Assembly: GCA_964016885.1 (NCBI GenBank)
Contig: OZ024757.1
Location: 7,130,001-7,194,000 of the forward strand
Reading direction: 5' to 3'
Origin: Eledone cirrhosa
Lineage: Eukaryota
Length of the DNA: 64,000 nt
How positions within the stretch are numbered: position 1 is the first letter of the stretch; the number at the start of each line of letters is the position of its first letter. Below the pieces are notes generated by a model. The model did no database searches and was not told where the DNA came from. It was given only the letters and a program-made list of their open reading frames with translations. Shown here one piece after another: positions 14,943 through 57,850 of this stretch. The position numbers and the translations under genes were made by a program.

Positions 14943-15611
14943 TACGTATATATATATACATATATACATGTATATATATATACATATATACATATTACAT
15001 ATATATACATATTACATATATATTCATATTACATTATATATATACATATTACATATATACATATATACATATTACATATTATATATATATATATACATAT
15101 TACACACATATATATATATATACATACATATTACATATATATATATAAATATATACATATTACATATATATACATATATACATATATACATATTACATAT
15201 ATATACATATATACATATTACATATATATATATACATATATACAGATTACATATATACATATATACATGTATATATATATACATATATACATATTACATA
15301 TATATACATATTACATATATATACATATTACATTATATATATACATATTACATATATACATATATACATATTACATATTATATATATATATATATTACAC
15401 ACATATATATATACATACATATTACATATATATATATAAATATATACATATTACATATATATACATATATACATATATACATATTACATATATATACATA
15501 TATACATATTACATATATATATATACATATATACAGATTACATATATTCATATATATATATACATATTACATATATATACATATATATATATACATATTA
15601 CATATATGTAT

Positions 15612-15676
<65 letters not shown>

Positions 15677-16502
15677 TACATATGTATATATATATACATA
15701 TATACATGTATATATATATACATATATACATATATATGTATATATATACATATATACACATATATACATATTACATATATATATACATATATACATATAT
15801 ATATATATACATATATACATATTACATATATATACATATTACATATATATACATATTGCATTATATATATACATATTACATATATATACATATATACATA
15901 TTACATATATATATATACATTTTACATATATATATATTACATATATATATACATATTACATATATATACATATTACATATATATACATATATACATATAT
16001 ATACATATATACATATTACATATATACATATATACATAATACATATATATATATATATACATATTACATATATATACATATATACATATTACTTTTTTAT
16101 ATATATACATATTACATATATATATATACATATTATATATATATAAAGATATACATATTACATATATATATACATATTACATATGTATATATATACATAT
16201 TACATATATATATACATATATACATATTACATATATATATATACATATATACATATTACATATATATAGATATACATATATACATATACATATAGATAGT
16301 ATTAGTTATACTATTTATGGTTATGTAAACACAAAACCTTAAGCAGTTGTAAGTATTTTACACACACCCTAAATAGTGGTAGGCAGTAATGTATTACTAC
16401 CTTATTACCAGTAAGTTAAGTAGCTCAATGTAAAAACATCAGATGATTTACAGAGCAGTTATATGAAATATATGAATCAAAGAACTGTTCAAAACATTAT
16501 TG

Positions 16503-16549
16503 TGCTTACAGCTGTTTCCTCCAAACCGAGGTTTGGATTCTTCGGAGCA
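16503..16549 (-). ncRNA. Hammerhead variant motif, family B
   Basis: Exact reverse complement of 18359-18405. Confidence 0.7.
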
Positions 16550-16598
16550 ATTTATTAATGCATGGACAGTTATATGACCTCCTTTTCAGCCGAGAACT

Positions 16599-16913
16599 GC
16601 CGAGAACTGCTTCAAAATTAGATATAACTCGCACATCCACTCGTTCAAAAAGCACAGCCTAGCCAACTCCACCTCACTTTCTAGCTACATTCACTATCTA
16701 AAATCTAAAAATAAACCATACACACTCAAATGGGAAGTGATAGGCAGCGCGACCTCGTATAAACCACCTAATAAATTCTGTAACCTCTGTATACTAGAGA
16801 CACACAATATTATCTTCTCCAACCGTAACCTACTTAACAAAAAATCTGAGGTGTTTGCAACTTGCCAGCACCGCCTCAGACATTCCTTCCAAAACTTTAA
16901 GCCCCATATATAG
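16599..16913 (+). pseudogene. C-terminal 104 aa of a Penelope-like GIY-YIG endonuclease (no start codon, absent from the ORF track)
   Basis: My translation: AENCFKIRYNSHIHSFKKHSLANSTSLSSYIHYLKSKNKPYTLKWEVIGSATSYKPPNKFCNLCILETHNIIFSNRNLLNKKSEVFATCQHRLRHSFQNFKPHI*; FKxRYxxH, CxLCxxE, LLN and CxH motifs. Confidence 0.8.
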
Positions 16914-18358
16914 CAATGTCGGACTGGAACCTAACACCACATCTAGCATCAAACACCAGAGACACACCCTATACTACATACCCAACACTAGCTGATCCAT
17001 TATAACACAAACAACGACATCCCTCTGGAACCCTTCGCAGGGAAAATACCCATTTATACCTCTACGGCAGGTGTGACAACATCCACCCACCTGGACGGCG
17101 CTACGCCGCTCTAAGGGTAATTTGAGCATCAATTGATCGGTTGGATGGTGTTGGGCAGAGGAAACACCTTCCTTAGACAGATGTAAAATGTTTTAATCGA
17201 GTAGCGCTGTTGACCAGTAGGACCAGGCCGCTGAGCGCAGTGAGTGAATGCAATGCAACTGCCGTGCGGGTTGTACGTATATGGATGATCTGACGGTCAG
17301 AGAGGGGTCGCGAGGACTGCGACTTGACCTTTGGCCTGCCTGGGGATGATTATCTTTCGACATCCAATGTAGCAAGCGATGACCCGGATCTTACCAGAGA
17401 TCATTGGGTCCTGAAGCAATCCTGCAATCACCGCGCCTGGTCATATGAGCAGACTACAACCATAGAGATCATTAATTTAGAATCCTCGCTCATCATCTAT
17501 AATTTCCATTTGTAGCACCTTAAGATGGGTTAATCCACCCTAATAATAATATGATCACCTTCAGCATAATTTAGTTAAACTACTCTATAGTTAGTACACT
17601 TTATGCTTTAAAAGTCTCTCTTGGAAGGTGCACCTCACCATAGAATTTAGGGTCTATATTGAGACACACTTTAATGGCTAGATATAGAAACCCCAGAGTT
17701 ACCTCCCCGCATGCATTAACTCCCCTTAGCCACACACACACTTCCGGTATTCAATGGCGTCTCTCGAAACGTAACAACCACCTGTATCGAACTAAAGAGC
17801 ACCAGACTACGATCTCTAACTGGATTGTCGTGGATTATGTGAAAGGCATATAATCGAAATATACACTCCCTTGACCATGAAAATACCGAAGTACATGAAT
17901 TACTTGACATCCCTGCGCTGTGCATCTCCAATACTTATAACACTTTTAATGCTTGCACTATCTTTAATGCTTATAATATTTCTCCACACACAGACTATAT
18001 CAATCATATAAAGACTTTGCCACCATATCTACCAACCTAACACTCTTATTTACCTACCTAAGTGCCTCTACCACACATATCTCTCTGCCACACTATATAA
18101 ACAAGACGCACATGCGTGCCACACATATAACATTTGCACTATATAACCACTTATCTTCATGTTGTACTTTAACCTATATCTTTGATTTTTTTGATTGTAC
18201 CTATTAATATAAATGTAATCTCGAAGTGTGTACTGCCACTCTAAATTCTGTAATGAATGTTGACCCACAATGTTTGAATATGTATCAATGTTTGAATATG
18301 TATTGGTATGTCTCTCGGCTGAAAAGGAGGTCATATAACTGTCCATGCATTAATAAAT

Positions 18359-18405
18359 TGCTCCGAAGAATCCAAACCTCGGTTTGGAGGAAACAGCTGT
18401 AAGCA
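18359..18405 (+). ncRNA. Hammerhead variant motif, family B (core CCGAAGA)
   Basis: UGCU CCGAAGA a UCCAAACC uc GGUUUGGA g GAAA CAGCUG UA^ AGCA; stem I UGCU/AGCA, 8-bp stem II, palindromic stem III ACAGCUGU. Confidence 0.7.
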
Positions 18406-18539
18406 CAATAATGTTTTGAACAGTTCTTTGATTCATATATTTCATACATATAGATATACATATTACATATATATATATATACATATATACATATATATAT
18501 ACATATATACAAATTACGTATATATATATACATATATAC

Positions 18540-18572
<33 letters not shown>

Positions 18573-19426
18573 CATATATACATATATATATACATATATA
18601 CATATTACATATATATACATATTACATATATATACATATTACATTATATATATACATATTACATATATACACATATATACATATTACATATATATATATA
18701 TACATATTACATATATATATACATATTACATATATATACATATATACATATATATACATATATACATATTACATATATACATATATACATATTATATATA
18801 TATACATATTACATATATATATATATATATATATACATATTACTTTTTTATATATATACATATTACATATATATATACATATTATATATATATATATACA
18901 TATTACATATATATATACATATTATATATATATATATACATATTACATATATATATATACATATTACATATATATATATATACATATTACACATATATAT
19001 ATATATATACATACTTATTACATATATATATACATATATATATACATATATACCTATTACATATATATATATATATATATACATATATACATATTACATA
19101 TATATGTATACATATATACATATTAAATATATTCATATATATATATATATACATATTACATATATATATATACATATTTACATATATATAGATATACATA
19201 TTACATATATGTATATGCATATATACATATATATATACATATATACATATTACGTATATATATATACATATATACATATATATATATACATATATACATA
19301 TATATATATAGACATATATACACATATATACATATTACATATATATATATATACATATATACATATATATATCTACATATATTAAGAGAGTAAAACAAAG
19401 AAGCCTTCAATACATCAAAAGTCTTT

Positions 19427-19472
19427 ATTAGCCGACAATGTTTCGTCCTATTAAGGACTCATCAGGGCAATT
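19427..19472 (-). ncRNA. Canonical minimal type I hammerhead ribozyme, family A, in a ~120-bp island (19378-19495)
   Basis: AUUGCC CUGAUGA GUCCU uaau AGGAC GAAAC AUU GUC^ GGC UAAUAAA; all core nucleotides canonical, GUC cleavage triplet. Confidence 0.9.
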
Positions 19473-20176
19473 AAAACAACAAGTAATAACGGTATATATA
19501 CGTATATACATATTACATATATACATATATACATATTACATATATATATATATACATATTACATATATATATATATATATACATATTACTTTTTTATATA
19601 TATACATATTACATATATATACATATTATATATATATAAAGATATACATATTACATATATATATATATATTACATATATATATATATACATATTATATAT
19701 ATAGATATATATATACATATTACACACATATATATATATATACATACATATTACATATATATATACATATATACATATTACATATATATATATACATATA
19801 TACATATTACATATATATATATACATATATACATATTAAATATATACATATATATATATGCATATTATATATATATATATATATACATATATAGATATAT
19901 ATATAGATATACATATTACATATATATATACATATATACATATATATATATATACATATATACATATATATAGATACATATATACATATATATATACATA
20001 TATACATATTACATATATATACATATTACATATATATATATATACATATTACATATATATACATATACATATTACATATATACATATCACATATATATAC
20101 ATATATACATATTACATATATATACATATACATATAACATATATATACATATACATATATACATATATATATATAC

Positions 20177-20234
<58 letters not shown>

Positions 20235-20237
20235 TAC

Positions 20238-20292
<55 letters not shown>

Positions 20293-20375
20293 TTACATAT
20301 ATCCATATATATCCATATATATATATATACATATAACATATGTATATATATACATATTACATTTATACATATTAC

Positions 20376-20447
<72 letters not shown>

Positions 20448-20557
20448 TACATATATACATATATACATATTACATATATACATATATACATATTTCATAT
20501 ATATATATACATATTACATATATATATATATATATACATATTACATATATACATGTA

Positions 20558-20598
<41 letters not shown>

Positions 20599-20599
<1 letters not shown>

Positions 20600-21640
20600 A
20601 AGAATTAATATCTAGTAACATATGTATACAGATGCATATCAATGCTAGCAAATATATAGGCTTTGTCTAGGTAACTTTGTGGTTCAATGCATGGGGTTGC
20701 AGAACAATAATATGAGAGACGTAAAAGAAGAAAATTATAAAATTAACTTACTTACTAAAATATCACTTCCAACTAATTAGTTTCTGAAATGGAATAAATA
20801 AACTTTCCGACGAAAATATAGAGAATCATTTCGTCGTCAGGGAAGACTATTCTCAGCTAAGTGTCCAGGCATTCTCAGCTAAGTGTCCAGACTCTGGAAA
20901 AATAATTCAGTAGATAGAAAATAGCAAAGCGTGGACTGGATTCCTAGCCATTGAGAAAATCACTGCCTCTGCGTCGGTGGCTGAGAATAGTCTTCCCTGA
21001 CGACGAAATGATTCTCAATATTTTCTTCGGAAAGTATATTTATACCATTTCAGAAACTAATTAGTTGGGAGTGAAATTTTAGTAAGTAAGTTAATTTTAT
21101 AATTTTCTTATTTTACGTCTCTCATATTATTGTTCTGCAACCCCATGCATTGAACCACAAAGTTACTAAGAGAAAACCTATATATTTGCTAGCATTGATA
21201 TGCATCTGTATGTATACATATGTTACTAGATATTAATTCTTTATAATTATCTCCAAATTATTTGTCGAGCAATATTTTGGCCACGACTTCTGCTATGGTA
21301 GAAGGCAGGCCACTGCCTTATTAAGAAACCACTTTCAGCTGATTGACCTCGATGTCACGTGATTCATTCTTTTTGAATTTGCCACCGACGCAGAGGCAGT
21401 GATTTTCTCAATGGCTAGGGATTCAGTCCACGCTTTGCTATTTTCTATCCACTGAATTATTTTTGTATAAGTTTCCCGAGTCCTCGCTTTGCCTGGACAC
21501 TTAGCTGAGAATAGATTTCCTGACGACGAAATGATTCTTTATATTTTCTTCGGAAAGTATATTTATTCTATTTCAGAAACAAATTAGTTGGGAGTGAAAT
21601 TTTAGTAAGTAAGTTAATTTTATAATTTTCTTATTTTACA

Positions 21641-21648
<8 letters not shown>
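20599..21648. mobile_element. Family D element block 2, with hammerheads at 20766-20845 (-), 20992-21071 (+) and ~21515-21594 (+)
   Basis: Near-identical to 13306-14367; predicted + strand cuts after 21066 and 21589 (523 nt apart). Confidence 0.85.
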
Positions 21649-21686
<38 letters not shown>

Positions 21687-21725
21687 TACATATATATATA
21701 TATACATATTACATATATATATATA

Positions 21726-21792
<67 letters not shown>

Positions 21793-22224
21793 TACATATA
21801 TACATATATATATATATACATATTACATATATACATATTACATATATATGCATATATATATACATATTACATATATACATATATACATATTACATATATA
21901 CATATATAAATATTACATATATATATATATACATATAACATATATATATATATATACATATTACATATATATATATACATATTACATATATATATATACA
22001 CATTACATATATATATATATTACATATATATATATACATATTACATATATATATATATACGTACATATTACATATATATATACATATATACATATTACAT
22101 ATATATACATATATACATATTACATATATATATATACATATATACAGATTACATATATACATATATATATATTCATATTACATATATATACATATGTATA
22201 TATATATACATATTACATATATCT

Positions 22225-22287
<63 letters not shown>

Positions 22288-22963
22288 TACATATTACGTA
22301 TATATATATACATATATACATGTATATATATATACATATATACATATTACATATATATACATATTACATATATATACATATTATATTATATATATACATA
22401 TTACATATATACATATATACATATTACATATTATATATATATATATACATATTACACACACATATATATATATACATACATATTACATATATATATATAA
22501 ATATATACATATTACATATATATACATATATACATATATATATATTACATATATATACATATATACATATTAGATATATATATATACATATATACAGATT
22601 ACATATATACATATATACATGTATATATATATACATATATACATATTACATATATATACATATTACATATATATACATATTACATTATATATATACATAT
22701 TACATATATACATATATACATATTACATATTATATATATATATATATATTACACACATATATATATATACATACATATTACATATATATATATAAATATA
22801 TACATATTACATATATATACATATATACATATATACATATTACATATATATACATATATACATATTACATATATATATATACATATATACAGATTACATA
22901 TATACATATATATATACATATTACATATATATACATATATATATATACATATTACATATATGT

Positions 22964-23024
<61 letters not shown>

Positions 23025-23726
23025 TACATATGTATATATATATACATATATACATGTATATATGTATACATATATACATATATATGTGTATATACACATA
23101 TATACACATATATACATATTACAGATATATATACATATATACATATATATATATATACATATATACATATTACATATATATACATATTACATATATATAC
23201 ATATTACATTATATATATACATATTACATATATATACATATATACATATTACATATATATATATACATTTTACATATATATATATATTACATATATATAT
23301 ACATATTACATATATATACATATTACATATATATACATATATACATATATATACATATATACATATTACATATATACATATATACATAATACATATATAT
23401 ATATATACATATTACATATATATACATATATACATATTACTTTTTTATATATATACATATTACATATATATATATACATATTATATATATATAAAGATAT
23501 ACATATTACATATTACATATATATATACATATTACATATATATATACATATTACATATATATATACATATTACATATATATATACATATATACATATTAC
23601 ATATATATATATACATATATACATATTACATATATATAGATATACATATATACATATATATATATATACATATATACATATATATATACATATATACAAA
23701 TTACGTATATATATATACATATATAC

Positions 23727-23763
<37 letters not shown>

Positions 23764-24646
23764 CATATATACATATATATATACATATATACATATTACA
23801 TATATATACATATTACATACATATACATATTACATTATATATATACATATTACATATATACACATGTATACATATTACATATATATATATATACATATTA
23901 CATATATATACATATTACATATATATATACATATTACATATATATACATATATAAATATATATACATATATACATATTACATATATACATATATACATAT
24001 TATATATATATACATATTACATATATATATATATATATATATATACATATTACTTTTTTATATATATACATATTACATATATATATACATATTATATATA
24101 TATATACATATTACATATATATATATACATATTATATATATATATATATACATATTACATATATATATATATACATATTACATATATATATATATATACA
24201 TATTACACATATATATATATATATACATACTTATTACATATATATATACATATATACTTATTACATATATATATATATATATATATACATATATACATAT
24301 TACATATATATGTATACATATATACATATTAAATATATTCATATATATATATATATACATATTACATATATATATATACATATATACATATATATAGATA
24401 TACATATTACATATATGTATATACATATATACATATATATATACATATATATATACATATATACATATTACGTATATATATATACATATATACATATATA
24501 TATATACATATATACATATATATATATAGACATATATACACATATATACATATTACATATATATATATATATACATATATACATATATATATCTACATAT
24601 ATTAAGAGAGTAAAACAAAGAAGCCTTCAATACATCAAAAGTCTTT

Positions 24647-24692
24647 ATTAGCCGACAATGTTTCGTCCTATTAAGGACTCATCAGGGCAATT
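24647..24692 (-). ncRNA. Hammerhead ribozyme family A, copy 2
   Basis: Identical motif to 19427-19472, 5220 bp downstream. Confidence 0.9.
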
Positions 24693-25388
24693 AAAACAAC
24701 AAGTAATAACGATATATATACGTATATACATATTACATATATACATATATACATATTACATATATATATATATACATATTACATATATATATATATATAT
24801 ACATATTACTTTTTTATATATATACATATTACATATATATATCTACATATTATATATATATAAAGATATACATATTACATATATATATATATATATTACA
24901 TATATATATATATACATATTATATATATAGATATATATATACATATTACACACATATATATATATATACATACATATTACATATATATATACATATATAC
25001 ATATTACATATATATATATATACATATATACATATTACATATATATATATACATATATACATATTAAATATATACATATATATATATACATATTATATAT
25101 ATATATATATATACATATATAGATATATATATAGATATACATATTACATATATATATACATATATACATATATATATATACATATATACATATATATAGA
25201 TACATATATACATATATATATACATATATACATATTACATATATATACATATTACATATATATATATATACATATTACATATATATACATATACATATTA
25301 CATATATACATATCACATATATATACATATATACATATTACATATATATACATATACATATTACATATATATACATATACATATATAC

Positions 25389-25462
<74 letters not shown>

Positions 25463-25569
25463 TACATATATACATATATATATATATATATAATTATTAC
25501 ATATATCCATATATATATATATACATATAACATATGTATATATAGACATATTACATATATACATATTAC

Positions 25570-25647
<78 letters not shown>

Positions 25648-25937
25648 TACATATATACATATATACATATTACAAATATACATATATACATATTTCATAT
25701 ATATATATACATATTACATATATATATATATACATATTACATATATATATATACATATTACATATATATATGTATACATATTACTTATATATATATATAT
25801 ATATTACATATATATACATATTACAGATATATATATACACATATTACATATATATGTATACATGTAACATATATATATACATATTACATATATATATATA
25901 CATATTACATATATATATATATATATTACATATATAT

Positions 25938-25990
25938 AGATGAGATTCTACAGGACTAGAACTGTTTCATTCTTTAGAAATCATCAGGAA

Positions 25991-26029
<39 letters not shown>

Positions 26030-26212
26030 GAGATTCTACAGGACTAGAACTGTTTCATTCTTTAGAAATCATCAGATTCCTGATGATTTCTAAAGAATGA
26101 AACAGTTCTAGTCCTGTAGAATCTCATCTATATTAAAACTTTCATACTCTGCAATGTATTGAGTACCTTACTTACTGTGGTTACCTCCGATTCAACCCGG
26201 AATAACGTACTA
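25938..26212. mobile_element. Short Penelope-type terminal fragment cluster with three hammerhead family C motifs
   Basis: Copies at 25942-25994 (-), 26030-26075 (-, truncated in stem I) and 26074-26124 (+), separated or flanked by (TC)n/(TA)n. Confidence 0.75.
26074..26124 (+). ncRNA. Type I hammerhead ribozyme motif, family C
   Basis: AGAUUC CUGAUGA u UUC uaaa GAA u GAAA CAG uucuaguc CUG UA^ GAAUCU; 6-bp stem I (7 bp in the minus copy), 4-bp stem III. Confidence 0.85.
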
Positions 26213-26231
26213 TATATATATATATATATAT

Positions 26232-26900
26232 ATAGTAGAATATTCGCGTATCGAAAAATCGGCGCACGAGTTCACGATAAACAAAATTCGAAATGAGCGG
26301 CAGAGGGCTCAATAATTCAGATAAATCAGAGCTATAACTATCGTTAAAATACCGTCACACATAGAACATGTCTACAATCAACCATACGACCGAAAAATTG
26401 CGATATGGAAGATTCGGGACACTCAGATAAAATATCAATAAATCAAAAAATCAAATGAATGTAAAAAGCATACCCGGACCCGCTAGAAAGATGGTAAATC
26501 TAGCTTCTTGGGTTTCTGTAAATCCTTAAACTGGCCTCTATCAGCTCACATAAAAATATATAAGACTTCTAGAAGCCAGCGGACCGGATTTTTACTTCCT
26601 CAACGAGCTTTTGTCCGAACGAATGAAAAGGCATAACCCAGGTTGAAAGAACGCACATGTAATTCAGCAAGGGAGATAACCTCTATATCCGCAAAAAATA
26701 TTCGGGAAAATGTGGAAATACACATATCGAATAAGAGTGCTCAATAGACATGTTAAAATAAACAGGAGCTATTCATCATTTAATAGAATCGACAAAAAAG
26801 GAACAATAAAATTGACTGGTCAATAGCTAGGTCTAGAGCTAAATATAGTAGAATAATCGAGTATCGAAAAATCGGCGCACGAGTTCACGATGAACAAAAT
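26232..26900. mobile_element. Non-coding element with ~55-bp terminal direct repeat, inserted in (TA)n
   Basis: tagtagaata..cg.gtatcgaaaaatcggcgcacgagttcacgat.aacaaaat occurs at ~26232 and ~26846. Confidence 0.65.
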
Positions 26901-27396
26901 ATACATATTACATATATTTATATATATATATATTTACATATATATATATATATACATATTACATATATTTATATATATATATATTTACATATATATATAT
27001 ATTACATATATATATATATATATATATACATATTACATATATATATTTACATATTACATATATATATATATATATACATATTACATATATACATATATAT
27101 ATATTACATATATATACACATATTACATTTATACATATATACATATATATATATATACACATATTACATATATACATATTACATATATACATATATACGT
27201 ATTACATATATATATATATATATATACATACATATAAACATATTTCATATATACATATATATACAGATACATGAACATATTACATATATACATATATATA
27301 CATATATATATATAGATATATATATACATATATATAAACATATTACATATATACATATATATACATATATATATATACATATTACATATATACATG

Positions 27397-27429
<33 letters not shown>

Positions 27430-27430
<1 letters not shown>

Positions 27431-28483
27431 AAGAATTAATATCTAGTAACATATATACATACAGATGCATATCAATGCTAGCAAATATATAGGTTTTGTC
27501 TTAGTAACTTTGTGGTTCAATGCATGGGGTTGCAGAACAATAATATGAGAGACGTAAAATAAGAAAATTATAAAATTAACTTACTTACTTAAATTTCACT
27601 CCCAACTAATTAGTTTCTGAAATGGAATAAATATACTTTCCGACGAAAATATAGAGAATCATTTCGTCGTCAGGGAAGACTATTCTCAGCTAAGTGTCCA
27701 GGCATTCTCAACTAAGTGTCCAGACTCTGGAAACTTATACAAAAATAATTCAGTGGAGAGAATATAGCAAAGCGTGGACTGGATTCCTAGCCATTGAGAA
27801 AATCACTGCCTCTGCGTCGGTGGCTGAGAATAGTATTCCCTGACGACGAAATGATTCTCTATATTTTCTTCGGAAAGTATATTTATTCCATTTCAGAAAC
27901 TAATTAGTTGGGAGTGAAATTTTAGTAAGTAAGTTAATTTTATAATTTTCTTATTTTACGTCTCTCATATTATTGTTCTGCAACCCCATGCATTGAACCA
28001 CAAAGTTACTAAGACAAAGCCTATATATTTGCTAGCATTGATATGCATCTGTATGTATACATATGTTACTAGATATTAATTCTTTATAATTATCTCCAAA
28101 TTATTTGTCGAGCAATATTTGGCCACGACTGCAGCTATGGTAGCAGGCAGGCCGCTGTCTTATTAAGAAACCACTTTCCACTGATTGACCTCGATGTCAC
28201 GTGATTCATTCTTTTTCAATTTGCCACCGACGCAGAGGCAGTGATTTTCTCAATGGCTACGAATTCAGTCCACGCTTTGCTCTTTTCTATCCACTGAATT
28301 ATTTTTGTATAAGTTTCCAGAGTCCTCGCTTTGCCTGGACACTTAGCTGAGAATAGTCTTCCCTGACAACTTAATGATTCTTTATATTTTCTTCGGAAAG
28401 TATATTTATTCTATTTCAGAAACAAATTAGTTGGGAGTGAAATTTTAGTAGGTAAGTTAATTTTATAATTTTCTTATTTTACG

Positions 28484-28492
<9 letters not shown>
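27430..28492. mobile_element. Family D element block 3, with hammerheads at 27599-27678 (-), 27835-27914 (+) and a core-mutated copy at ~28358-28437 (+)
   Basis: Same architecture as blocks 1 and 2; third motif reads CUGACAA. Confidence 0.85.
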
Positions 28493-28521
<29 letters not shown>

Positions 28522-28558
28522 TACATATATATATATATACATATTACATATATATATA

Positions 28559-28641
<83 letters not shown>

Positions 28642-28919
28642 TACATATATACATATATATATATATACATATTACATATATACATATTACATATATATAC
28701 ATATATATATACATATTACATATATACATATATACATATATACATATTACATATATACTTATATAAATATTACATATATATAGATATATACATATAACAT
28801 ATATATATATATACATATTACATATATATATATATATTACATATATATATACATATTACATATATATATATACACATTACATATATATATATACATATTA
28901 CATATATATATATACATAT

Positions 28920-28962
<43 letters not shown>

Positions 28963-29151
28963 ATATTACACACATATATATATATATACATAAATGTTAC
29001 ATATATATATACATATATACATATTACATATATATACATATATACATATTACATATATATATATACATATATACAGATTACATATATACATATATATATA
29101 TACATATTACATATATATACATATATATATATATACATATTACATATATCT

Positions 29152-29196
<45 letters not shown>

Positions 29197-31076
29197 TACA
29201 TATTACGTATATATATACATATATACATGTATATATATATATACATATATACATATTACATATATATACATATTACATATATATACATATTACATTATAT
29301 ATATACATATTACATATATACATATATACATATTACATATTATATATATATATATACATATTACACACATATATACATACATATTACATATATATATATA
29401 CATATATACATATTACATATATATACATATATACATATTACATATATATATATATACATATATACAGATTACATATATACATATATATATATACATATTA
29501 CATATATATACATATATATATATACATATTACATATATGTATACATATATATATATATATATATACATATATACATATGTATATATATATACATATATAC
29601 ATGTATATATATATACATATATACATATATATATATATATAAATATATATATATACATATATACACATATATAGATATTACATATATATATACATATATA
29701 CATATATATATATACATATATACATATTACATATATATACATATTACATATATATACATATTACATTGTATATATACATATTACATATATATACATATAT
29801 ACATATTACATATATATATATACATATTACATATATATACATATTACATATATATATACATATTACATATATATACATATACATATTACATATATATACA
29901 TATATACATATATATACATATATATATTACATATATACATATAAACATATTACATATATATATATATACATATTACATATATATATATATATATATATAC
30001 ATATTACTTTTTTATATATATACATATTACATATATATATATACATATTATATATATATAAAGATATACATATTACATATATATATATACATATTACATA
30101 TATATATATATACATATTACATATATATATATGTATATACACATTACACATATATATATATATATACATACATATTACATATATATATACATATATACAT
30201 ATTACATATATATATATACATATATACATATTACATATATATATATACATATATACATATATATATACATATATACATATTACGTATATATATACATATA
30301 TACATATATATATATACATACATACATATATATATATACATATATACATATATATATACAAATATACATATTACATATATATACATATTACATATATATA
30401 CATATTACATTATATATATACATATTACATATATATACAAATATACATATTACATATATATATATATATACATATTACATATATATACATATTACATATA
30501 TATATACATATTACATACATATACATATACATATTACATATATATACATATATACATATATATACATATATACATATTACATATATATACATATATACAT
30601 ATTACATATATATACATATACATATTACATATATATACATATACATATTACATATATATACATATATACATATATATACATATATACATATTACATATAT
30701 ACATATATATATATTATATATATATATACATATTACATATATATATATATATATATATATACATATTACTTTTTTATATATATACATATTACATATATAT
30801 ATACATATTATATATATATATACATATTACATATATATATACATATTACATATATATATATATACATATTACATATATATATATATACGTGTTACACATA
30901 TATATATATATATACATATATATTACATATATATATACATATATATATATTACATATATATATATATATATACATATATACATATTACATATATGTGTAT
31001 ACATATATACATATTAAATATATACATATATATATATATATATATACATATTACATATATATATATATATACATTT

Positions 31077-34000
31077 AGTATTAAGGGTACTATTTATGGT
31101 TATGTATACAATAAAACCTTTAATGGTAATATATTATATATACACAAACCCTAAATAGTGAGAGATAGTCATTAATTACTATCCTATTACCAGTAAGATA
31201 AATAGCTCAATGTAATAACATCAGTTGTTTTACAGAGCAGTTATATAGAGATTACAGTAATCAAAGTTCAGTTTAAGTCATTTATTTGCTTACAATTGTT
31301 TCCTCCAAACCGAGGTTTAGATTCTTCGGAGCAACTATTTACTGATCTATAACATACTTGACCTCCTTTTCAACCCAAGAGACACATAAACCATATGCGC
31401 ATATTGATCAACAGTGGGGTGACATTCATCAAATGATATAGCATGGCAATTTACATATAAAGGTTACAGGATAAAAATAAAATAAAAACAAGAGTGAAAA
31501 TAAGAGTGAAAATAAAGATAAACATGAAGCATTGGCAGTCTATGAAGATAAAGCAAGAGGAAAGCTTAGAGTAGTCAGTGTATGAAACAATCTCCCGTGT
31601 AGCATGCACGCGTGTCTTATTTATACATGATTAGAGTGCGTCAGAATGATATTTGCAGGGTCAGGCAGTTGAAGCAGGCAATCGATCTTATTATGTAGGC
31701 TGAATTATTAAGTCATTTATTCTCATACATCTGTATGATATACAGTCTCGGATGCGGGGAAACACCAAAATATCAAAAACTTTCAACATACTATAAACCT
31801 TATTGTATCGTGGGCAAGGCCGTACCACTGTCCCTGCTCACACCACCACTCACATAATCCATGAGACGCAATATATATAGAGAACACGCGTCTATCGTAT
31901 AATTCGCGGTGGTTCAGCATATAGTCAAGCTATAAACCGTATCCAGTCGGTTCTTAATTAATATATCATGCTGTCCAGATTCCGGAAGTGCCTGAATGAC
32001 TAAGGGGAATTAATGCGTAAGGGGAGGTAACTAGCTAGTTATCTTAGTTACATTACTATCCTAAACTACATTAATGGTGATTCAAATACGTGCCTATCAT
32101 GTGAAGTTATAACTAATATCTAGAGTATGTTACCCATTTATAGGTTAGAAAGTTGTCCATTAAGAAGTACAAGGGTGTATATATTAGGATGATTACCATC
32201 CATTAATTAAGGGGTGTCATATCTGAACGTTCTATAAGAGGAGTCAGACTCTCAAGTCACTGCTCCATGCAAATGTAATATAACAGTAGGACCTGGTATG
32301 GTCCCACTATTATATATGCCCCCGGTAGGCTCCGGGTCATTGGATGCCTGCATCTCCAGTAAATCTTCGGTATGGTCCGGATATCCAATCTCTCATATAA
32401 ATGCACTAGTCTGGCCATCAAGCAATAGACAACCCCCGTCTCAAATATAAATCAATTATGTATCACATCTACAAGCTAGAGTGGAGTCTATTAATAGGTA
32501 CTAATGGAGTTCACATCAAGATGATTACGTGCATAATTCATTGAACTGATCGCTTACAGTATATATTCACAGAACAATACGATTATCTATCTAATCATCA
32601 ATCTATCTCTTGGTGGTAATCCATGCACAGGACTATGCTATCGCAACCAGTACCGTGTCCCCAATTTATACTAATCTTATATTTGTGCAATGCAGAATAA
32701 GTAGTCCACGGTCGAGATATCAGTATTAGAGGTACAAGGGGGTATTCCCAGGGTAGGTGGTACTAAAATGCTGTCAGTATTATCTTTAGAGATTAGTATA
32801 AATTGGGGACACGGTACTGGTTGCGATAGCATAGTCCTGTGCATGGATTAGCACCAAGAGATAGATTGATGATTAGATAGATAATCGTATTGTTCTGTGA
32901 ATATATACTGTAAGCGATCAGTTCAATGAATTATGCACGTAATCATCTTGATGTGAACTCCTTTAGTACCTATTAATAGACTCCACTCTAGCTTGTAGAT
33001 GTGATACATAATTGATTTATATTTGAGACGGGGGTTGTCTATTGCTTGATGGCCAGACTAGTGCATCTATATGAGAGATTGGATCTCCGGACCATACCGA
33101 AGATTTACTGGAGATGCAGGCATCCAATGACCCGGAGCCTACCGGGGGCATATATAATAGTGGGACCATACCAGGTCCTACTGTTATATTACATTTGCAT
33201 GGAGCAGTGACTTGAGAGTCTGACTCCTCTTATAGAACGTTCAGATATGACACCCCTTAATTAATGGATGGTAATCATCCTAATATATACACCCTTGTAC
33301 TTCTTAATGGACAACTCTCTAACCTATAAATGGGTAACATACTCTAGATATTAGTTATAACTTCACATGATAGGCACGTATTTGAATCACCATTTGAATC
33401 ACCATTAATGTAGTTTAGGATAGTAATGTAACTAAGATAACTAGCTAGTTACCTCCCCTTACGCATTAATTCCCCTTAGTCATTCAGGCACTTCCGGAAT
33501 CTGGACAGCATGATATATTAATTAAGAACCGACTGGATACGGTTTATAGCTTGACTATATGCTGAACCACCGCGAATTATACGATAGACGCGTGTTCTCT
33601 ATATATATTGCGTCTCATGGATTATGTGAGTGGTGGTGTGAGCAGGGACAGTGGTACGGCCTTGCCCACGATACAATAAGGTTTATAGTATGTTGAAAGT
33701 TTTTGATATTTTGGTGTTTCTCCGCATCCGAGACTGTATATCATACAGATGTATGAGAATAAATGACTTAATAATTCAGCCTACACAATAAGATCGATTG
33801 CCTGATTCAACTGCCTTACCCTGCAAATATCATTCTGACGCACGCTAATCATGTATAAATAAGACACGCGTGCATGCTACACGGGAGATTGTTTCATACA
33901 CTGACTACTCTAAGCTTTCCTCTTGATTTATCTTCATAGAATACCAACGCTTCGTGTTTATCTTTATTTTCACTCTTATGTTCACTCTTGTTTTTATTTT

Positions 34001-34519: not shown

Positions 34520-34565
34520 ATTAGCCGACAATGTTTCGTCCTATTAAGGACTCATCAGGGCAATT
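34520..34565 (-). ncRNA. Hammerhead ribozyme family A, copy 3
   Basis: Identical motif to 19427-19472. Confidence 0.9.
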
Positions 34566-34712: not shown

Positions 34713-37700
34713 ATCATCATCATCATCACCGTTTTACGTCCGTTCTTCCACGCTAGCATGGGTTAGACGGGTTGTCCTGTTGTGGGCAGTGTCTGGTCGG
34801 CTGACCATGCCTTGCTCATACAGGAACTGATCTGGCTTGATTTCTACAGCTGGATGCCCTTCCTAACACCAACCTCATTTACAGTGAGTGCTGGGTACTT
34901 TTTCGTGGCGCCTACACGTCCACTTTACAGTGTGGGCTGGGTGCTTTTTTGCCGTGGCACCTCCACGACCACCTTGCGGTGGGAGGAGTGGGGGCATATT
35001 GTTTATATGCTTCAGCATGTACCCATGGGAGGTCGGGTACCCTGTATTACTGCGTGACGCCAGAAGTCACGGTCGTGTGTCATTGACTTTGAGAGGTGTA
35101 GTTGGGTAAGGTCGGCTTTTATCACCTCATCCCAAGTCATCTTGGGTCTCCCCACTCCGCGGTTTCCATCAACTTCTAGTGCTCTGCACCTTTTTATGCA
35201 GCTGTCATCCTTCATACGCATCACATGTCCATACCAGCGTAACCGCCTCTCCTGCACGCAGCATTTGATTCCTCTTATGCTCAGTCTCTCTCTCAATTCC
35301 TTTATGCTTTGTCGTTCACGTATATTACTGTTACACATCCATCGGCGCATGCAGGCTTCGTTTCTCTCTAATCTACGTAAGTCTTCCACCTTCAGCGCCC
35401 AGGTCTCACTACCATGCAACATCGCTGTTCGGATACACGCATCATACAGTCTGCCTTTCATTCTGAGGGAGAAGCCTTTTGCAGCTAGCAGTGGTAGTAG
35501 TTCCCTAAACTACTTCCATCCCGTTCTTACCCTAGTTATTGTACTTTCTGAGCACCCACCTCCGTTGCTAATTCGGTCACCTAGGTAGCAGAAGCTGTCT
35601 ACTGTTTCTACAGGGCCCTCCCAGAGATTGGTGGTACTTGTTTCCTGTGGCTGTTTGCTTGCTGTTTCAGCACAGCTGCTGCATGTGAATCCTACATTCT
35701 TAATTAAGCTTCCTGAGATCCCGCTACATCTCTTGTGTACCCATTGTTTGCATTTGGGGCAGAGAATGGAGTTCCTACCTACACCTTTCCTACATACTGA
35801 GCAAGGCCATTTCCCTGAGGGGATCTGGGTTCTGTTTTCTCGTCTACTTACAAGGACCTTAGTCTTTGTCATGTTGACTTTGAGGCCCCTTCTCTCTAGT
35901 CCCTGCTTCCAGGTTTGGAATTTATTCTCTAGTTCTACCATAGATTCAGCTATGAGTGCGAGGTCATCAGCATACAGGAGTTCCCATGGGCACCCGGTTT
36001 TAAACTCCTCCGTTATTGCCTGCAGGACTATGATGAACAGGAGAGGGCTAAGAACAGAGCCCTGGTGGACCCCAACCTGTACGCTAAATTCCTCGCTATA
36101 CTCATTGCTAATCCTAACTTTGCTGACTGCTCCCCTATACATGGCTTGTACCGCTTTCACAAGCCATTCATCTACTCCTAGTTTTCTAAGAGCCCACCAG
36201 ATTACTGCACGTGGAACTCTGTCAAAGGCTTTCTCAAGGTCGACAAATGCCAAGTAGAGTGGCTTACTTTTAGCTAGGTACTTTTCCTGTAATTGCCTCA
36301 CAAGGAAGAGGGCATCAGTGGTGCCTTTCCCTGGTACAAACCCAAATTGCATCTCGTCTATATTTACCCGGTCCCTAATCAGCTGTGCTATAACTCTTTC
36401 TGTTACTTTCATGACCTGGTCCAACAACTTTATACCTCTATAGTTTCCTCTATCTAGTGCATCGCCTTTACCTTTGTAGCAGTTGACAATGATGCTACTG
36501 CACCAATCTTTTGGTATGGCCCCTTCTAGTATTACCTGGTTAACGATACGTGTGGTTATAGTGTGACCTACAGACCCAGATGCCTTCAGCATCTCGGCAG
36601 CTATACCCGATGGACCGGTTGCCTTCCCTATCTTCATATCTCTGATTGCCTTACTTACTACGCTGCCGCTGACTTGTACTGCTGGTCCCTCTATAGGGTC
36701 TACGTGGGGTAGGGTCTCTTCTTCCCATGCATTCTCCTCATTTAGTAATCTATCATAATGACTCTTCCATGCATCTTTCTTCTCAACACTTGTGAGGGCA
36801 AGCTCACCTTTATCATTCCGGATACACTTCTCTCCAATGACATCACAACTATCTCTGACACACTGCCTCGCAATCTTGAATACCTCCTGTTTCTGGTCCT
36901 CACGTTGTAAAACATGCTTGAATTTTCTATCCTCTGCTTCCCTCCTAGCTAAGTATACTTGTCGCCTAGCTTCCCTCTTGGTCTCTATGTAATGTACCCT
37001 GCTCCCCCTGTTCTTCCATTCTTTCCATGCCTGTCTCTTGGCCTTGACTGCTTCATCTACCTTATTGTTCCACCACCAAGTCACTCTCCTCCTGCTTGAG
37101 GTCTTACTCCAGCCACAAACCTCATCCGTTGCCTCTAGTAAGTTATTTTTTAGGAACTCCCAGTTCTCTTCTACGTTAAATGTCTTTATCTGTTCTTCTT
37201 TACTGTCGTAGGCGTTGAGTAAAATATCTTTAAGTCTGTTACTGGTTGAGGGGACTTTCAGCTTCCAGATCTTTCTTCTCCAGGTTGGCCTCTGTTTCCG
37301 GGTTCGTCTAGTTCTGACCGTGAGGTCGCTGACAACTAAGCTATGTTGGGATGTACATTCCTCACTAGGGAAGGCTTTTGTGTTTGCGACCGTCCATCTG
37401 TCACGTCCTCTGATGAGGATAAAATCTAACTGACTAGAGTGCTCCCCTGATCTATAGGTGATCAGGTGGTTGTCGGGTTTTTTAAAGTTGTGTTACATAT
37501 CGACATGTCATTGGCGTCGCAGAATTCTAGAAGTCTGAATCCTTCCTCATTCCTTGTGCCAACTCCATGGCCTCCATGTACTCTATTGAAGCCGTCGCAG
37601 TGTTTACCTACGTGTCCGTTAAAATCTCCTGCAATGATTAGGAAGTCCTTGTCGTCTGTTAGAGCAGTAGTGTGTATTAGGGACTCGTAAAACCTATCCT

Positions 37701-38681: not shown

Positions 38682-39316
38682 TATATACATATACATATTA
38701 CATATATATACATATATACATATACATATTACATATATATACATATATACATATATATACATATATACACATTACATATATACATATATACATATTACAT
38801 ATATATATATATATATACATATTATATATATATATACATATTACTTTTTTATATATATACATAGTACATATATATATATATACATATCATATATATATAT
38901 ATATATACATATTACATATATATATACATATTACATATATATATATTACATATATATATATATACATATTACATATATATATATATATATATATATTACA
39001 CATATATATATCTATACATACATATTACATATATATATACATATATACATATTACATATATATATACATATATACATATTATATATATATATACATATAT
39101 ACATATTAAATATATACATATATATATATATATACATATTACATATATATATATATATACATATATACATATATATATAGATATACATATTACATATATA
39201 TACATATATATATATATATATACATATATACATATTACGTATATATACATATATACATATATATATATATATACATATACACATATATATATACATATAT
39301 ACACATATATACATAT

Positions 39317-39361
<45 letters not shown>

Positions 39362-40384
39362 ATATATACATATATACATATTACATATATATATACATAT
39401 ACATATTAAATATATATACATATATACATATATATACATATATACATATTACATATATACATATATACATATTACATATATATATATACATATTACATAT
39501 ATATATATACATATTACTTTTATATATATATACATATTACATATATATATATACATATTATATATATATAAATATATACATATTACATATATATATATAT
39601 ATTACATATATATATATACATATTACATATTACATATATATATATATATACATATTACAAATATATATATCTATAAATACATATTACATATATATATATA
39701 TATACATATTACAAATATATATATCTATAAATACATATTACATATATACATACATATATACATATTACATATATATATATACATATATACATATTACATA
39801 TATATATATACATATATACATATTAAATATATACATATATATATATATATACATATTGCATATATATATATATATACATATATACATATATATATACATA
39901 TATACATATTACGTATATATATACATATATACATATATACATATATATATATATGCATATATACATATATATATATACATATATACATATATATATACAT
40001 ATATACATATTACACATATATACATATTACATATATATACATATTACATTATATATATACATATTACATATACATACATATATACATATTACATATATAT
40101 ATATATACATGTTACATATATATACATATTACATATATATATATATACATATTACATATATATACATATACATGTTACATATATATACATATATACATAT
40201 ATGTACATATATACATATTACATATATATACATATATACATATTAGATATATATACATATACATATTACATATATATACATATACATATTACATATATAT
40301 ATATATATACATATATACATATATATACATATATACATATTACATATATACATATATACATATTACCTATATATATATACATAT

Positions 40385-40478
<94 letters not shown>

Positions 40479-40483
<5 letters not shown>

Positions 40484-41312
40484 GACGTAAAATAAGAGAA
40501 TTATAAAATTAGCTTACTTCCTAAAATATCACTTCCTCTCATCTAAGTATCCAGGCAAAGCGGGGACTCTGGAAAGTTATTCAAAAATAATACTGTGGAT
40601 AGAAAATAGCAAAGCGTGGACTGAATTCCTCGCCATTGGGAAAATCCTTTATAATTTTCTTATTTTACGTCGCTCATATTATTGTTCTGCAACCCCATGC
40701 ATTGAACCACAAATTTACTAAGACAAAACCTATATATTTGCTAGCATTGATATGCATCTGTATGTATATATGTTACTGGATATTAATTCTTTATAATTAT
40801 CTACAAATTATTTGTCGAGCAATATTGGCCATGACTGCTGCTATGGTAGCAGGCAGGCCGCTGTCTTATTAGCAAACCACTTTCCACTGATTGACCTCGT
40901 TGTCACGTGATTCATTCTTTTTGAATTTGCCACCGACGCAGAGGCAGTGATTTTCTCAATGGCTAGGAATTCAGTCCACGCTTTGCTATTTTCTATCCAC
41001 TGAATTATTTTTTAATAAGTTTCCAGTGTCCACGCTTTGCCTGGATACTTAGATGAGAATAGACTTCCCTGACGACGGAATGCTTCTTCGTATTTTCTTA
41101 GGAAAATATATTTATTCCATTCCAGAAACTAATTAGTTGGAAGTGATATTTTAGTAAGTAAGTTAATTTTATAATTTTCTTATTTTACGTCTCTCATATT
41201 ATTGTTCTGCAACCCCATGCATTGAACCACAAAGTTACTAAGACAAAACGTATATATTTGCTAGCATTGATATGCATCTGTATGTATATATATTACTAGA
41301 TATTAATTCTTT
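40479..41312. mobile_element. Family D element block 4 (more diverged; deleted inverted part plus ~1.3 monomers)
   Basis: tttataattttcttattttacgtc recurs at ~40648 and ~41168 (about 520 bp apart). Confidence 0.8.
41063..41144 (+). ncRNA. Type I hammerhead ribozyme motif, family D (diverged copy)
   Basis: ACUUCC CUGACGA c GGAAUG..UAUUUUCU ua GGAAAAUA..CAUUCC a GAAA CUAAUUAG UU^ GGAAGU; perfect 6-bp stem I; compensatory change in stem II. Confidence 0.85.
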
Positions 41313-41338
41313 ATATATACATATATATATATATATGC

Positions 41339-41370
<32 letters not shown>

Positions 41371-41389
41371 GCATATATATATATATATA

Positions 41390-41539
<150 letters not shown>

Positions 41540-41569
41540 TATATATATATCCATATATGCATATATATA

Positions 41570-41800
41570 TATGTATAAAACTGAGGTTGTCCGTCTGTCT
41601 GTGTGTCTGTCTGTCTACTAAATCCGTCGGCACACATCTCCTCTTAAACCGTACGTTCAAATTTCGGTGAAATTGCTACACTCATAGATGAAAATCCAGC
41701 GGAAACATCGGTCAAAATAATATTCAAATCGACTCACGCCAAGTGCAAAAATGGAATTTGTAATATATTGATTTTTCAGTTCAAATATATAAATAGAGAT
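41570..41800 (+). mobile_element. Probable Helitron-like 5' fragment
   Basis: (TA)n-tataaaactgag..(gtct)n..aaatttcggtgaaattg resembles the 5' end of the other Helitrons; no 3' end found. Confidence 0.45.
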
Positions 41801-50833: not shown

Positions 50834-52490
50834 TCATCAATGGTGCTACTTCGGAGCAGTGGAAAACTGCCAGTGTCATTCCCCTGTTCAAAAAGGGCAA
50901 CCGCATGTCACCTGTCAACTATGACCAGTGAGTCTTACTAGCTGTATGGCCAAACTGATGGAATCCTGTGTCAGAGAAACACTTTGGAACTTCTGGAGCT
51001 CTCACAGCCTCATCCGGCCCTCACAGTTTGGATTTATCCCTAACTCCAGCTGCTGTGATCAGCTTATCGAGTTCCTTGAGGACATCACCCGGATCACTGA
51101 CAGTGGCTCATGGGTGGATGTTGTTTACCTTTACTTTGCTAAGGCTTTTAATTCTGTGCCACACAAAAGACTTATGGCAAAACTCTCTGCAATGGGTGTG
51201 AGGGATGATCTTTTCGACTGGCTGAAATCCTTCATTCTCAGCCGAAAGGAAGTAGTCACGGTTCTAGGACAGCATTCTTCACCATATGAGATGTCATCTG
51301 GTGTACCACAGGGATCTGTTCTTGGTTCTCTTTTGTTTGTGGCATATATTAATGACATAGATGCCAACTTACAGAATGCCACGGTACTAAAATATGCAGA
51401 TGACATCAAGCTGTACCTTGAAATCAAAAGGACTGGTCCTGAAATTTACAACTCTTTCCTACAATCAGACCTGGACACAATGCAGCAATGGATCACAGAC
51501 TGGCAACTGAAGCTGGCTGTGGACAAGTGTACCACCATGCATTTTGGAAGGAAAAATCCAGCGTCCACATACTCCCTCCACAACACTGACATCAAAAAGT
51601 CCTCTTGTGAACGTGACCTGGGCATTACTGTCAGCAACGATTTGCGTTGGACAAAGCATGTCTCTAAGATTGTCAAGAAGGCCGAGGGTGTCTTAGCATC
51701 ACTCAGCAAGACCTTTGTTAGCCGCTCTCCAGCCATCTATTTAAAACTGTATACAGCTATGGTACGACCGCACTTGGAATTCGCATCATCAGTCTGGAAC
51801 CCCTATCTTGCTCGGAACATTGACCTCCTGGAAACTGTTCAGAGACGTGCAACCAAGCGCTTACCCTCCATCAGACACCTACCATACTCTGAACGCCTTG
51901 CTTCCCTGGGCATGGATTCATTGAAGCTCTGACGTCTGGCAATGGACTTGGTGAATACCCACAAAGTTTTTAACCATCTCGCCAACTGCAACCCTGAGCG
52001 CCTCTTTGATCTCCATGTGTCTAACACACGTGGACATGCCTACAAGATCAGAAAACAGCACAGATCCCATGACTTTCGTAGACATTTTTTGACGCTCAGA
52101 ATTGCTGAAGCATGGAACAAACTGCCTGCATCAATTGTTAGCTGCCGAGACACTGCATCCTTTAAGACACTCATGCTTCCCGAAATACGCCAAAACTACA
52201 CCTGATGTACCCCTTCCATACACATGCACACATGTGTGTATCATGACTCGTGCACTGTTCATTTTACTGATGTTTGTGCATTGCCCTATGTACTGTACAT
52301 GCACTTTTTTGATGAGTTGTGGTGCACCTGGGCACTGTACACAATATTTTGTTATTATTATATCATGACTCATACACTGTTCATTTTCCTGACATTTGTA
52401 CATTATTCTATGTACTATACATGCACCTTTGATGAGTTGTAGTGCACCTGAGCACTGTACACAATAATTTCATTATTATTATTATTATTA
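50834..52490 (+). mobile_element. 5'-truncated CR1-group LINE (RT domain, 3' UTR with internal duplication, (TTA)n tail)
   Basis: WKTASVIPLFKKG, SQFGF, FAKAFNSVPH, SGVPQGSVLG, KYADDIKL, ERDLGI, RPHLEF, LETVQRRATK; in-frame stops at ~50922 and ~51930. Confidence 0.9.
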
Positions 52491-52827: not shown

Positions 52828-53705
52828 CGAGGTGGGTCAGAAAAGTTCCAGGACTGATGTCACAAAAGATTTATTTCAAACCCAAACTTCACACTAAGAG
52901 TTTTCTCCTTCAAAGTAATCCCCCTGGAGTCTAATGCACTTTTCCATCCTTTTCTGCCAAGCTTGCATGCACTCCTGGAAGGATTCTTCCGGGACCCTCC
53001 GCAGTTCCATCGTCACGGCCATTTTGATGTCATCCACATCTTCAAAACGGGTCCCCTCCGGGTCGTACTCGAAGATCCATGACTCATCACTGGTGATGAC
53101 TGTCCCTAGCAAGTCTGGTTCAGTTTCAAGACGCTCGAGGATGTCCTGGCACACTTGCATGCTGCGACCCTTCTGGTCATCGTTCAACAGTTTTGGCACC
53201 ATCTTTGCGCAGACTTTCCGCATGTCCAAATCTTCAGTAAGAATCTTCCAGACGCTGTCCCGATTCATGCCCAGCTCATTAGCCATCAGTCGAACAGTCA
53301 GCCGACGATCGCTACGCACCATCTGCCTGACGCGCTCAATGTTGATCTCAGTCCTGCTTGTTGAGGACCTTCTGCTCCTGGGGTCCTCTTCCACGTCGTC
53401 GCATCCTTCTTTAAACCTCTTGCACCACTCAAAAACACGTGAGCGTGACATCGTCTAATCTCCATACACTTGCTGCAGCAATCCCAGTGTTTCTGACGGA
53501 GTTTTCAAGTTTGTTCGTTGCTCTGTGCTCATTGCTTGACGACCTGAAACAGAGGACATGTATATAAAATTATGAAGAAAAAAGTTTGATCATTGCAGAG
53601 AGCTAAGATTACTGTTACATACTCCAGGGGGATTACTTTGAAGGAGATAACTCTTGAAATAAATCTTTTGTGACATCAGTCCTGGAACTTTTCTGACACA
53701 CCTCT
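52828..53705 (-). mobile_element. mariner transposon, internally deleted
   Basis: TA target duplication; ~50-bp TIR cgaggtgggtcagaaaagttccaggactgatgtcacaaaagatttatttcaa; ORF with HTH region, KMVPKLL and ITSDESWIFEYDPE fused directly to GTRFEDV (most of the catalytic domain deleted). Confidence 0.92.

Positions 53706-56704: not shown

Positions 56705-57850
<1,146 letters not shown>

Follow-up and report, generated by a model that had tools for sequence, protein, structure and literature searches.

A stretch of 82 nt at 41063-41144 on the plus strand of the window (the whole 64,000-nt piece of Eledone cirrhosa DNA analysed here) raises the question of whether it is a hammerhead ribozyme whose RNA structure was under selection in the elements that spread it, as a preliminary description had proposed from paired differences between repeat copies. 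The sequence reads ACUUCC-CUGACGA-C-GGAAUG...CAUUCC-A-GAAA-CUAAUUAGU-U/GGAAGU and fits a type I hammerhead fold with stems I-III, a core and a predicted cut after GUU at 41138/41139. On sequence, folding and copy comparison, the 5' strand of stem I (ACUUCC) is placed at 41063-41068. It is followed by the core CUGA-C-GA with C41076, which is either position 10.1 of a C·A mismatch or an extra base (41069-41076), by the 5' strand of stem II (GGAAUG, 41077-41082), by the 5' side of a stem II internal loop (41083-41089, with UUCUU at 41084-41088 where the family has UUCUC) and by a distal hairpin, GUAUUUUC-UUAG-GAAAAUAU (41090-41109), whose loop is UUCG in the family. The 3' strand of stem II (CAUUCC) lies at 41118-41123, and pair tallies and covariation identify its C41122 as the partner of the covarying base G41078. 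A41124, GAAA and stem III occupy 41124-41138, the predicted cut falling after U41138, and a 12-nt palindrome, AACUAAUUAGUU (41127-41138), holds the 3-bp stem III. The 3' strand of stem I (GGAAGU, 41139-41144) would open the 3' product of the predicted cut. Upstream on the same strand, GAGAA (41055-41059) is the 5' strand of a candidate pseudoknot with the stem II internal loop.

All 13 positions of the hammerhead consensus core (C3 U4 G5 A6 N7 G8 A9 G12 A13 A14 A15 U16 H17; PMC3088659) are present, at 41069-41075, 41125-41128 and 41137-41138. The window contains the core pattern 20 times where 0.8 would be expected, which is more than chance. Taken alone, the segment folds no better than shuffled sequences (z -1.26; 21 of the 200 shuffles did equally well). 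Across the window no Rfam family attains its gathering score, and no Rfam hammerhead family matches 40400-41400 even at E≤10; the Rfam miRNA matches in the window are (TA)n. The palindrome is predicted to dimerize at -9.0 kcal/mol and to form no hairpin as an isolated monomer.

The copy is carried by an insertion at 40481-41315 (block 4), composed of an inverted 5' piece and 1.3 direct units of a 520-bp non-coding repeat and situated between (TA)n tracts at 38682-40479 and 41312-41577. The direct part (40648-41315, plus strand), in which 40648-40795 is repeated at 41168-41315 to give the 520-bp unit, terminates at the +179 3' end of the family and runs into (TA)n. The inverted piece (40481-40646, minus strand) is a partial unit without a ribozyme. 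At its junction 40536/40537 the equivalent of 41058 is fused to 41139, so that 80 nt (41059-41138) are gone and the deletion stops exactly at the predicted cleavage site. An identical deletion junction occurs in L002/L014 and L003, which also have the inversion junction in common; this reflects a single event whose product was subsequently duplicated together with its flanks (C18, at a distance of 435 kb; C1636). It could be a record of cleavage, 3' trimming and religation.

Three other blocks in the window belong to the A-U subfamily of the same family: block 1 (13303-14368, with three ribozyme copies) and its duplicates, block 2 (20596-21650, 98%) and block 3 (27427-28493, 96%). They are 95-98% identical across ~1.07 kb and have one inversion junction in common. 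Blocks 1-3 are a single insertion, duplicated, and the window therefore offers one comparison, not three. The region at 12100-31400 that bears them is a ~7-kb segmental triplication of (TA)n-rich DNA. Further hammerhead-like cores occur in short (TA)n-embedded fragments at 19441-19465, 24661-24685 and 34534-34558 (minus) and at 25965-26102, the last in an inverted arrangement. The window also contains a 622-aa PIF1-like helicase frame that is Helitron-like (9741-11609, minus; Pfam PF05970), LINE fragments at 35510-37492 (minus, with RVT_1 and PHD matches), 392-1057 and 50925-51932, a C2H2 zinc-finger array with an 84-bp period and 11.5 copies (56705-57850, plus) and, by eye, a mariner-like transposase fragment (52894-53454, minus). 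Richness in (TA)n together with such a zinc-finger array is reminiscent of coleoid cephalopods.

What the window itself says about selection is limited. The second pair of stem II (41078/41122, hereafter II.2) is G-C in the 41063-41144 copy and A-U in the block copies. The double change from GAAAUG/CAUUUC in blocks 1-3 to GGAAUG/CAUUCC is thus real, but only six of the nine block copies fit it; in the other three, U replaces the first C of the 3' strand and the palindrome is broken, and one of these also has a decayed core. Neither the stem I argument nor the one drawn from an unchanged stem III palindrome counts as evidence of covariation. Eleven differences separate this copy from a block copy, and the compensatory pair accounts for only two. 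The 'perfect' stem I, which had been read as compensation, reflects a one-sided difference at A41063 (A in 39 of 45 close relatives, T in 6), and stem I contains no double swap. Likewise, the distal hairpin was said to have changed while still pairing; it does covary genome-wide, but its differences here are one-sided (A-U to G-U at 41090, U-G to U-A at 41106), and A41100, which breaks the cUUCGg loop, is private (C in 45 of 45 close relatives), as is the change at 41088. The window-only evidence is weak: it consists of one event, and a filter for such events (one double change, at least 90% paired) is passed by 96 column pairs across the unit, so that a single event proves little.

Genome-wide, the copy belongs to a family whose size, tandem and inverted anatomy, two fixed 3' ends and scattered 5' ends can be read directly. 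Exact-pattern searches over the whole 3.0-Gb genome, with core and palindrome fixed in the patterns, returned 8,752 matches carrying U at position 7 and 1,454 carrying C there (0 for control patterns), hence at least 10,206 exact-pattern copies of the motif. Measured from cleavage site to cleavage site, 113 tandem units are 500-574 bp each. No ORF of at least 120 aa was found within the unit, and GC is 34-35% in five units; retrozyme units are defined as non-coding, with GC below 50%. All five units examined as circles fold more stably than their shuffles, by ~3 to 7 s.d. (12 shuffles each). The longest tandem array among the matches listed has seven alike-looking ribozymes 521 bp apart (G000:C1:170,798,017-170,801,204). 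Family variants are present in three contig-only runs of one sample, which attests their existence there only and is silent on expression, strand and ends. In a search of the literature we found no published description of this hammerhead repeat family, and the repeat may already carry a name in a library such as Repbase or Dfam; a squid genome paper gives 235 Rfam hammerhead matches without detail (PMC6962438).

Insertion ends were mapped at 191 loci, selected for containing a whole ribozyme, and in the window. Of 269 3' ends, 251 fall into two clusters, one ~60-90 and the other ~170-200 nt beyond the cleavage site, and (TA)n adjoins 237 of the 269. The 272 5' ends are scattered round the unit, often as inversions. 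Target-site duplications are unreadable because the insertion ends lie within (TA)n. The data do not support the cleavage site as a favoured 5' end, and show no pile-up there: eight rows fall within 2 nt of it, three of them one duplicated event, and the excess has a p of 0.045 in an interval chosen afterwards. Two stem II subfamilies occur together in 5 of 88 multi-copy clusters (L023, L029, L037, L100, L155), which may reflect either template switching from one RNA to another or several insertions into a single (TA)n tract.

Over the 1,454 exact matches, II.2 is A-U in 387, G-C in 1035, U-A in 5, C-G in 3, G-U in 5 and mismatched in 19. Linkage alone could yield two clean haplotypes of this kind, and the telling tests are therefore a sample with unconstrained stems, an alignment of distinct copies (A1) and a tree. 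The sample consists of the first 100 matches listed of the 8,752-match pattern, in which stems I and II were left free. There II.2 is paired in 100 of 100 (0.44 expected) as C-G 37, U-A 32, A-U 23 and G-C 8, and II.5 in 93 of 100 (0.50 expected). In A1, which comprises 134 of 170 distinct copies with three large subfamilies limited in number and most loci fetched for mismatches excluded, 93.4% of cells in the stems are paired, against 83.7% after shuffling (0 of 500 as high) and 29-47% with slid partners. Double changes affect two of six pairs in stem II and all six in the distal hairpin, and RNAalifold recovers both helices unaided.

A home-made tree-aware G-test with APC, which compared 7,381 column pairs with 1,318 tree-shuffled nulls, ranked II.2 first (E<0.001), a distal pair second (E 0.35) and II.5 fourth (E 1.1); II.2 alone reached significance, the others having E of 0.35, 1.1 or worse. 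Events were counted on a tree of 66 insertions from whose construction the ribozyme columns were left out. All six stem II events on internal branches preserve pairing and five are double. They include three separate changes at II.2 (U-A to C-G, U-A to A-U and A-U to G-C) and G-C to U-A at II.5, twice. The contrast between internal and tip branches is not significant (6/0 vs 4/3 kept/broken, p 0.19). Site 41083 (A/C), only 5 nt from II.2, is found with both stem II types among the matches listed, and the II.2 partner 44 nt away stays matched while 41083 varies. Elsewhere in the unit, little covariation was found. On the plus strand, stem II and the distal hairpin thus covary, with four Watson-Crick types at II.2, and the proposal that RNA structure was selected in the source elements stands on this genome-wide footing. 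The outcome named in advance as its refutation, independent variation in larger alignments, did not appear.

The remaining parts of the fold behave differently. Pairs I.1-I.3 of stem I are formed in 98-99 of 100 in the unconstrained sample, with wobbles and indels and without a double swap. Along the tree stem I changes by stepwise indels (ACUCC/GGAGU, ACUUCC/GGAGU, ACUUCC/GGGAGU, ACUUCC/GGAAGU), and lineage-wide mismatches and a bulge are tolerated. Stem III is nearly invariant in A1 and shows no covariation there (double changes in 0 of 3 pairs); doubly changed palindromes gave 8 matches against 3 for the control, one of them plausible (L201). Core changes on the tree number 0 on internal branches and 5 at tips, and core and palindrome look invariant partly because the search patterns fixed both. 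Per-class conservation tests were all non-significant.

Could the paired changes have arisen without RNA selection? That the II.2 bases are linked subfamily markers, complementary by chance, would suit the single event in the window and the 96 unit column pairs with one such event, accounts for part of what is observed and may account for the pseudoknot pair, but for stem II it is largely refuted and hardly credible, given four Watson-Crick types at II.2 through three separate double changes and two more at II.5, first rank among 7,381 pairs against 1,318 nulls, and the collapse of the slid-partner controls. Template switching or hairpin correction at the DNA level could also make paired changes with no RNA selection (PMC8794818), and both the near absence of intermediates at II.2 (G-U in 5 and A·C in 3 of 1,454) and the abundant inverted structure of the element are compatible with it. 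We consider this very improbable as the explanation. G-U states are inherited by whole subfamilies, which a DNA route does not favour, and the 60 G-U against 7 A-C cells in nine pairs (cells, not events) favour plus-strand RNA over a DNA hairpin. Moreover, the arms are 6 bp long and 35 nt apart, little covariation was found in inverted repeats of the unit outside the ribozyme, and selection would still be needed to keep the stems (PMC8794818); a DNA mechanism may supply mutations, but the need for selection remains.

The repeat has the insertion traits of Penelope-like element (PLE) pseudo-LTRs (pLTRs), being 5'-truncated, inverted and microsatellite-biased, which raises the alternative that the unit is not a retrozyme in its own right but the pLTR of an autonomous PLE. 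PLEs are characterised by inverted 5' copies and a bias towards (TA)n (10.1101/2021.04.23.441226), and Xenopus retrozymes derive from pLTRs (10.64898/2026.07.22.740005). We nevertheless judge this alternative very improbable. Fragments with a reverse transcriptase (RT) and, at the C terminus, a GIY-YIG nuclease lie beside the element in four inspected loci (L034, L069, L075, L095; L049 and L083-85, with another PLE type, are outside the inspected adjacency set), the RT matches and two nuclease matches being below the Pfam cut-off. In none of these four loci does the unit flank the RT and GIY-YIG ORF; the ORF enters its own pLTR, bearing a different minimal hammerhead, and the units of the present family stand head-to-tail without any ORF. 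Shared (TA)n targeting explains the adjacency. In L075 (1314-1961 and 1-1320, minus), the +175 end of the element is fused directly, on the same strand and without intervening (TA)n, to a 5'-truncated RT/GIY-YIG element, an arrangement that may be a template-switch chimera.

Other small hammerheads were encountered at these and further loci. Minimal hammerheads with a 6-bp stem II (GUCACA/UGUGAC, GUUGCA/UGCAAC) occur in L010, L034, L066, L069, L095, L101 and L204; those of L034, L069 and L095 sit in the 3' region of PLE ORFs that likewise end in (TA)n. A second small-hammerhead repeat family (21 matches: L092, L097, L104, L075 and others) has the pattern CUGAYGA-U-AGCU-loop-AGCU-U-GAAA-CUAG-UA, with U·U at the stem II base and stem I variants that look compensatory.

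The core of the fold is atypical. C41076 stands opposite A41124 at the base of stem II, and this C·A occurs in 290 of 293 copies, most of whose loci came from patterns fixing both bases. The two bases can be read as a mismatch at 10.1-11.1 beside the core, with G-C following one step out, or as the extra base of PLE hammerheads (PMC4209133) plus one more. Natural U·U at 10.1-11.1 is known (PMC3088659, PMC7229834), and we found no paper on a hammerhead with C10.1 and A11.1. Such a mismatch beside the core, together with the GUU site, predicts slow cleavage.

These features bear on the main rival, in which the fold was selected for protein binding or RT recognition, cleavage has weakened or disappeared, and a linear transcript of several units, left uncut and primed internally, serves as template. 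The near-constant C·A, a palindrome around the GUU site that can pair A14 with U17 (MFE), 5' ends that do not stop at the cleavage site, and the weak in vitro activity of PLE hammerheads (PMC4209133) would all agree with it. The presence of all 13 consensus core positions points the other way, as do core changes confined to tips (in copies found with core-fixing patterns), the stable folding of units as circles, and one deletion that ends exactly at the predicted cleavage site. On balance we regard this rival as unlikely. Insertions start at either of two internal sites and continue across the cleavage junction without halting there in any clear way, which excludes a cleaved linear monomer as template and still permits an uncleaved multimer.

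The reading we strongly favour is that of a covarying type I hammerhead, present once per unit in a large, non-autonomous, (TA)n-targeting family of the non-LTR retrozyme kind, probably moved by a PLE by analogy with related elements. Only copies with a folded RNA would propagate, so that stem II and the distal hairpin would drift in pairs in the source lineages, and inserted copies such as 41063-41144 would decay after insertion. By comparison with known retrozymes, multi-unit transcripts would cleave themselves, probably as dimers through the palindrome, and the monomers would then be circularised. A published study has reportedly found dimer cleavage by PLE hammerheads. A PLE RT/GIY-YIG protein, again as in known retrozymes, might use nicked (TA)n to prime the circle at two internal sites, and copying round the circle would give more-than-unit, 5'-truncated and inverted insertions.

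A more specific version assigns a function to sequences outside the core. GAGAA is complementary to the internal-loop UUCUC in 216 of 294 rows, and one clade (640 matches) has GAAAA with UUUUC, compensated in 97 of 100 among the matches listed. Outside that clade GAAAA is scattered and, in 45 of 47 rows, uncompensated, giving no second A-U origin. The compensatory event is a single one (rank 57, E 118 in the tree-aware test); the pseudoknot pair A24-U58 shows 0 double changes, and no other double change was found. GAGAA could alternatively pair with a stretch of U downstream of stem I (MFE). The pseudoknot is plausible, such pseudoknots being established in hammerheads (PMC3088659), and it is unproven in view of the alternative pairing and the single event. 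Building on it, a distinct architecture may be envisaged in which a slow C10.1·A11.1/GUU core is rescued by the GAGAA/UUCUC pseudoknot and works only in dimers, and in which the more than 10,000 insertions are records of rolling-circle reverse transcription. Multimers would be cut and circles would survive, a Neptune-like PLE would reverse-transcribe the circular RNA from two internal sites, and L075 would be the template-switch chimera that names the partner. Rolling-circle reverse transcription of circular RNA has so far only been proposed for animal retrozymes. We hold this architecture to be possible but doubtful.

The analysis turns a one-copy impression into measured selection on RNA structure in a mobile element, in a family missed by Rfam. 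The family offers natural mutagenesis of an atypical hammerhead on a very large scale, and its insertion ends bear directly on the priming of animal retrozyme RNAs and their conversion into DNA.

Among known systems, pseudoknot-stabilised hammerheads, which comprise all three types and about 40% of cases (Perreault et al. 2011, PMC3088659), are similar in their 4-6 bp pairing, which links the side of stem I with the loop of stem II, with the 5-bp pseudoknot of the human C10 ribozyme as one case; they differ in that the pairing here is proposed from one event and reaches into the internal loop of an extended stem II. The minimal hammerheads of PLE pLTRs (PMC4209133) resemble ours in being type I, in a palindromic helix III that implies dimers, in an unpaired base after A9 and, if C41076 and A41124 are counted as extra bases, in G10.1-C11.1. 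Their families are 'full of covariations' (PMC4209133). Covariation is to be expected in retroelement hammerheads and has been reported in general terms before, which makes our core finding confirmatory. Unlike them, the present hammerhead combines a genuine helix III of 3 bp with a long helix II, carries one more A ahead of G12 and lacks an ORF between its repeats.

The closest counterparts are the animal non-LTR retrozymes defined by Cervera & de la Pena 2020 (PMC7229834) and Li et al. 2026 (10.64898/2026.07.22.740005). The main text of the latter makes no mention of molluscs, cephalopods, pseudoknots or covariation, and it describes eight of nine predicted retrozyme dimers as giving no cleavage. 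The present family differs from animal retrozymes in its stem II, which an internal loop and a distal hairpin lengthen, in C·A where they have G-C or U·U, and in insertions that are dispersed in (TA)n, include inversions and have two fixed 3' ends. Its unit of 500-574 nt is longer than the 170-400 nt quoted for invertebrates and the usual ~150-450 bp, and lies within the overall range of 51-972 bp (10.64898/2026.07.22.740005). Like them, it is built of non-coding units in tandem, each bearing one type I hammerhead (PMC7229834, 10.64898/2026.07.22.740005), has low GC, thousands of copies, a short palindromic helix III and PLEs alongside, and has a mismatch at the helix II base as in axolotl HHR_Amex2, where it is U·U. 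The family works like a non-LTR retrozyme bearing a type I hammerhead and, by testable criteria, is one.
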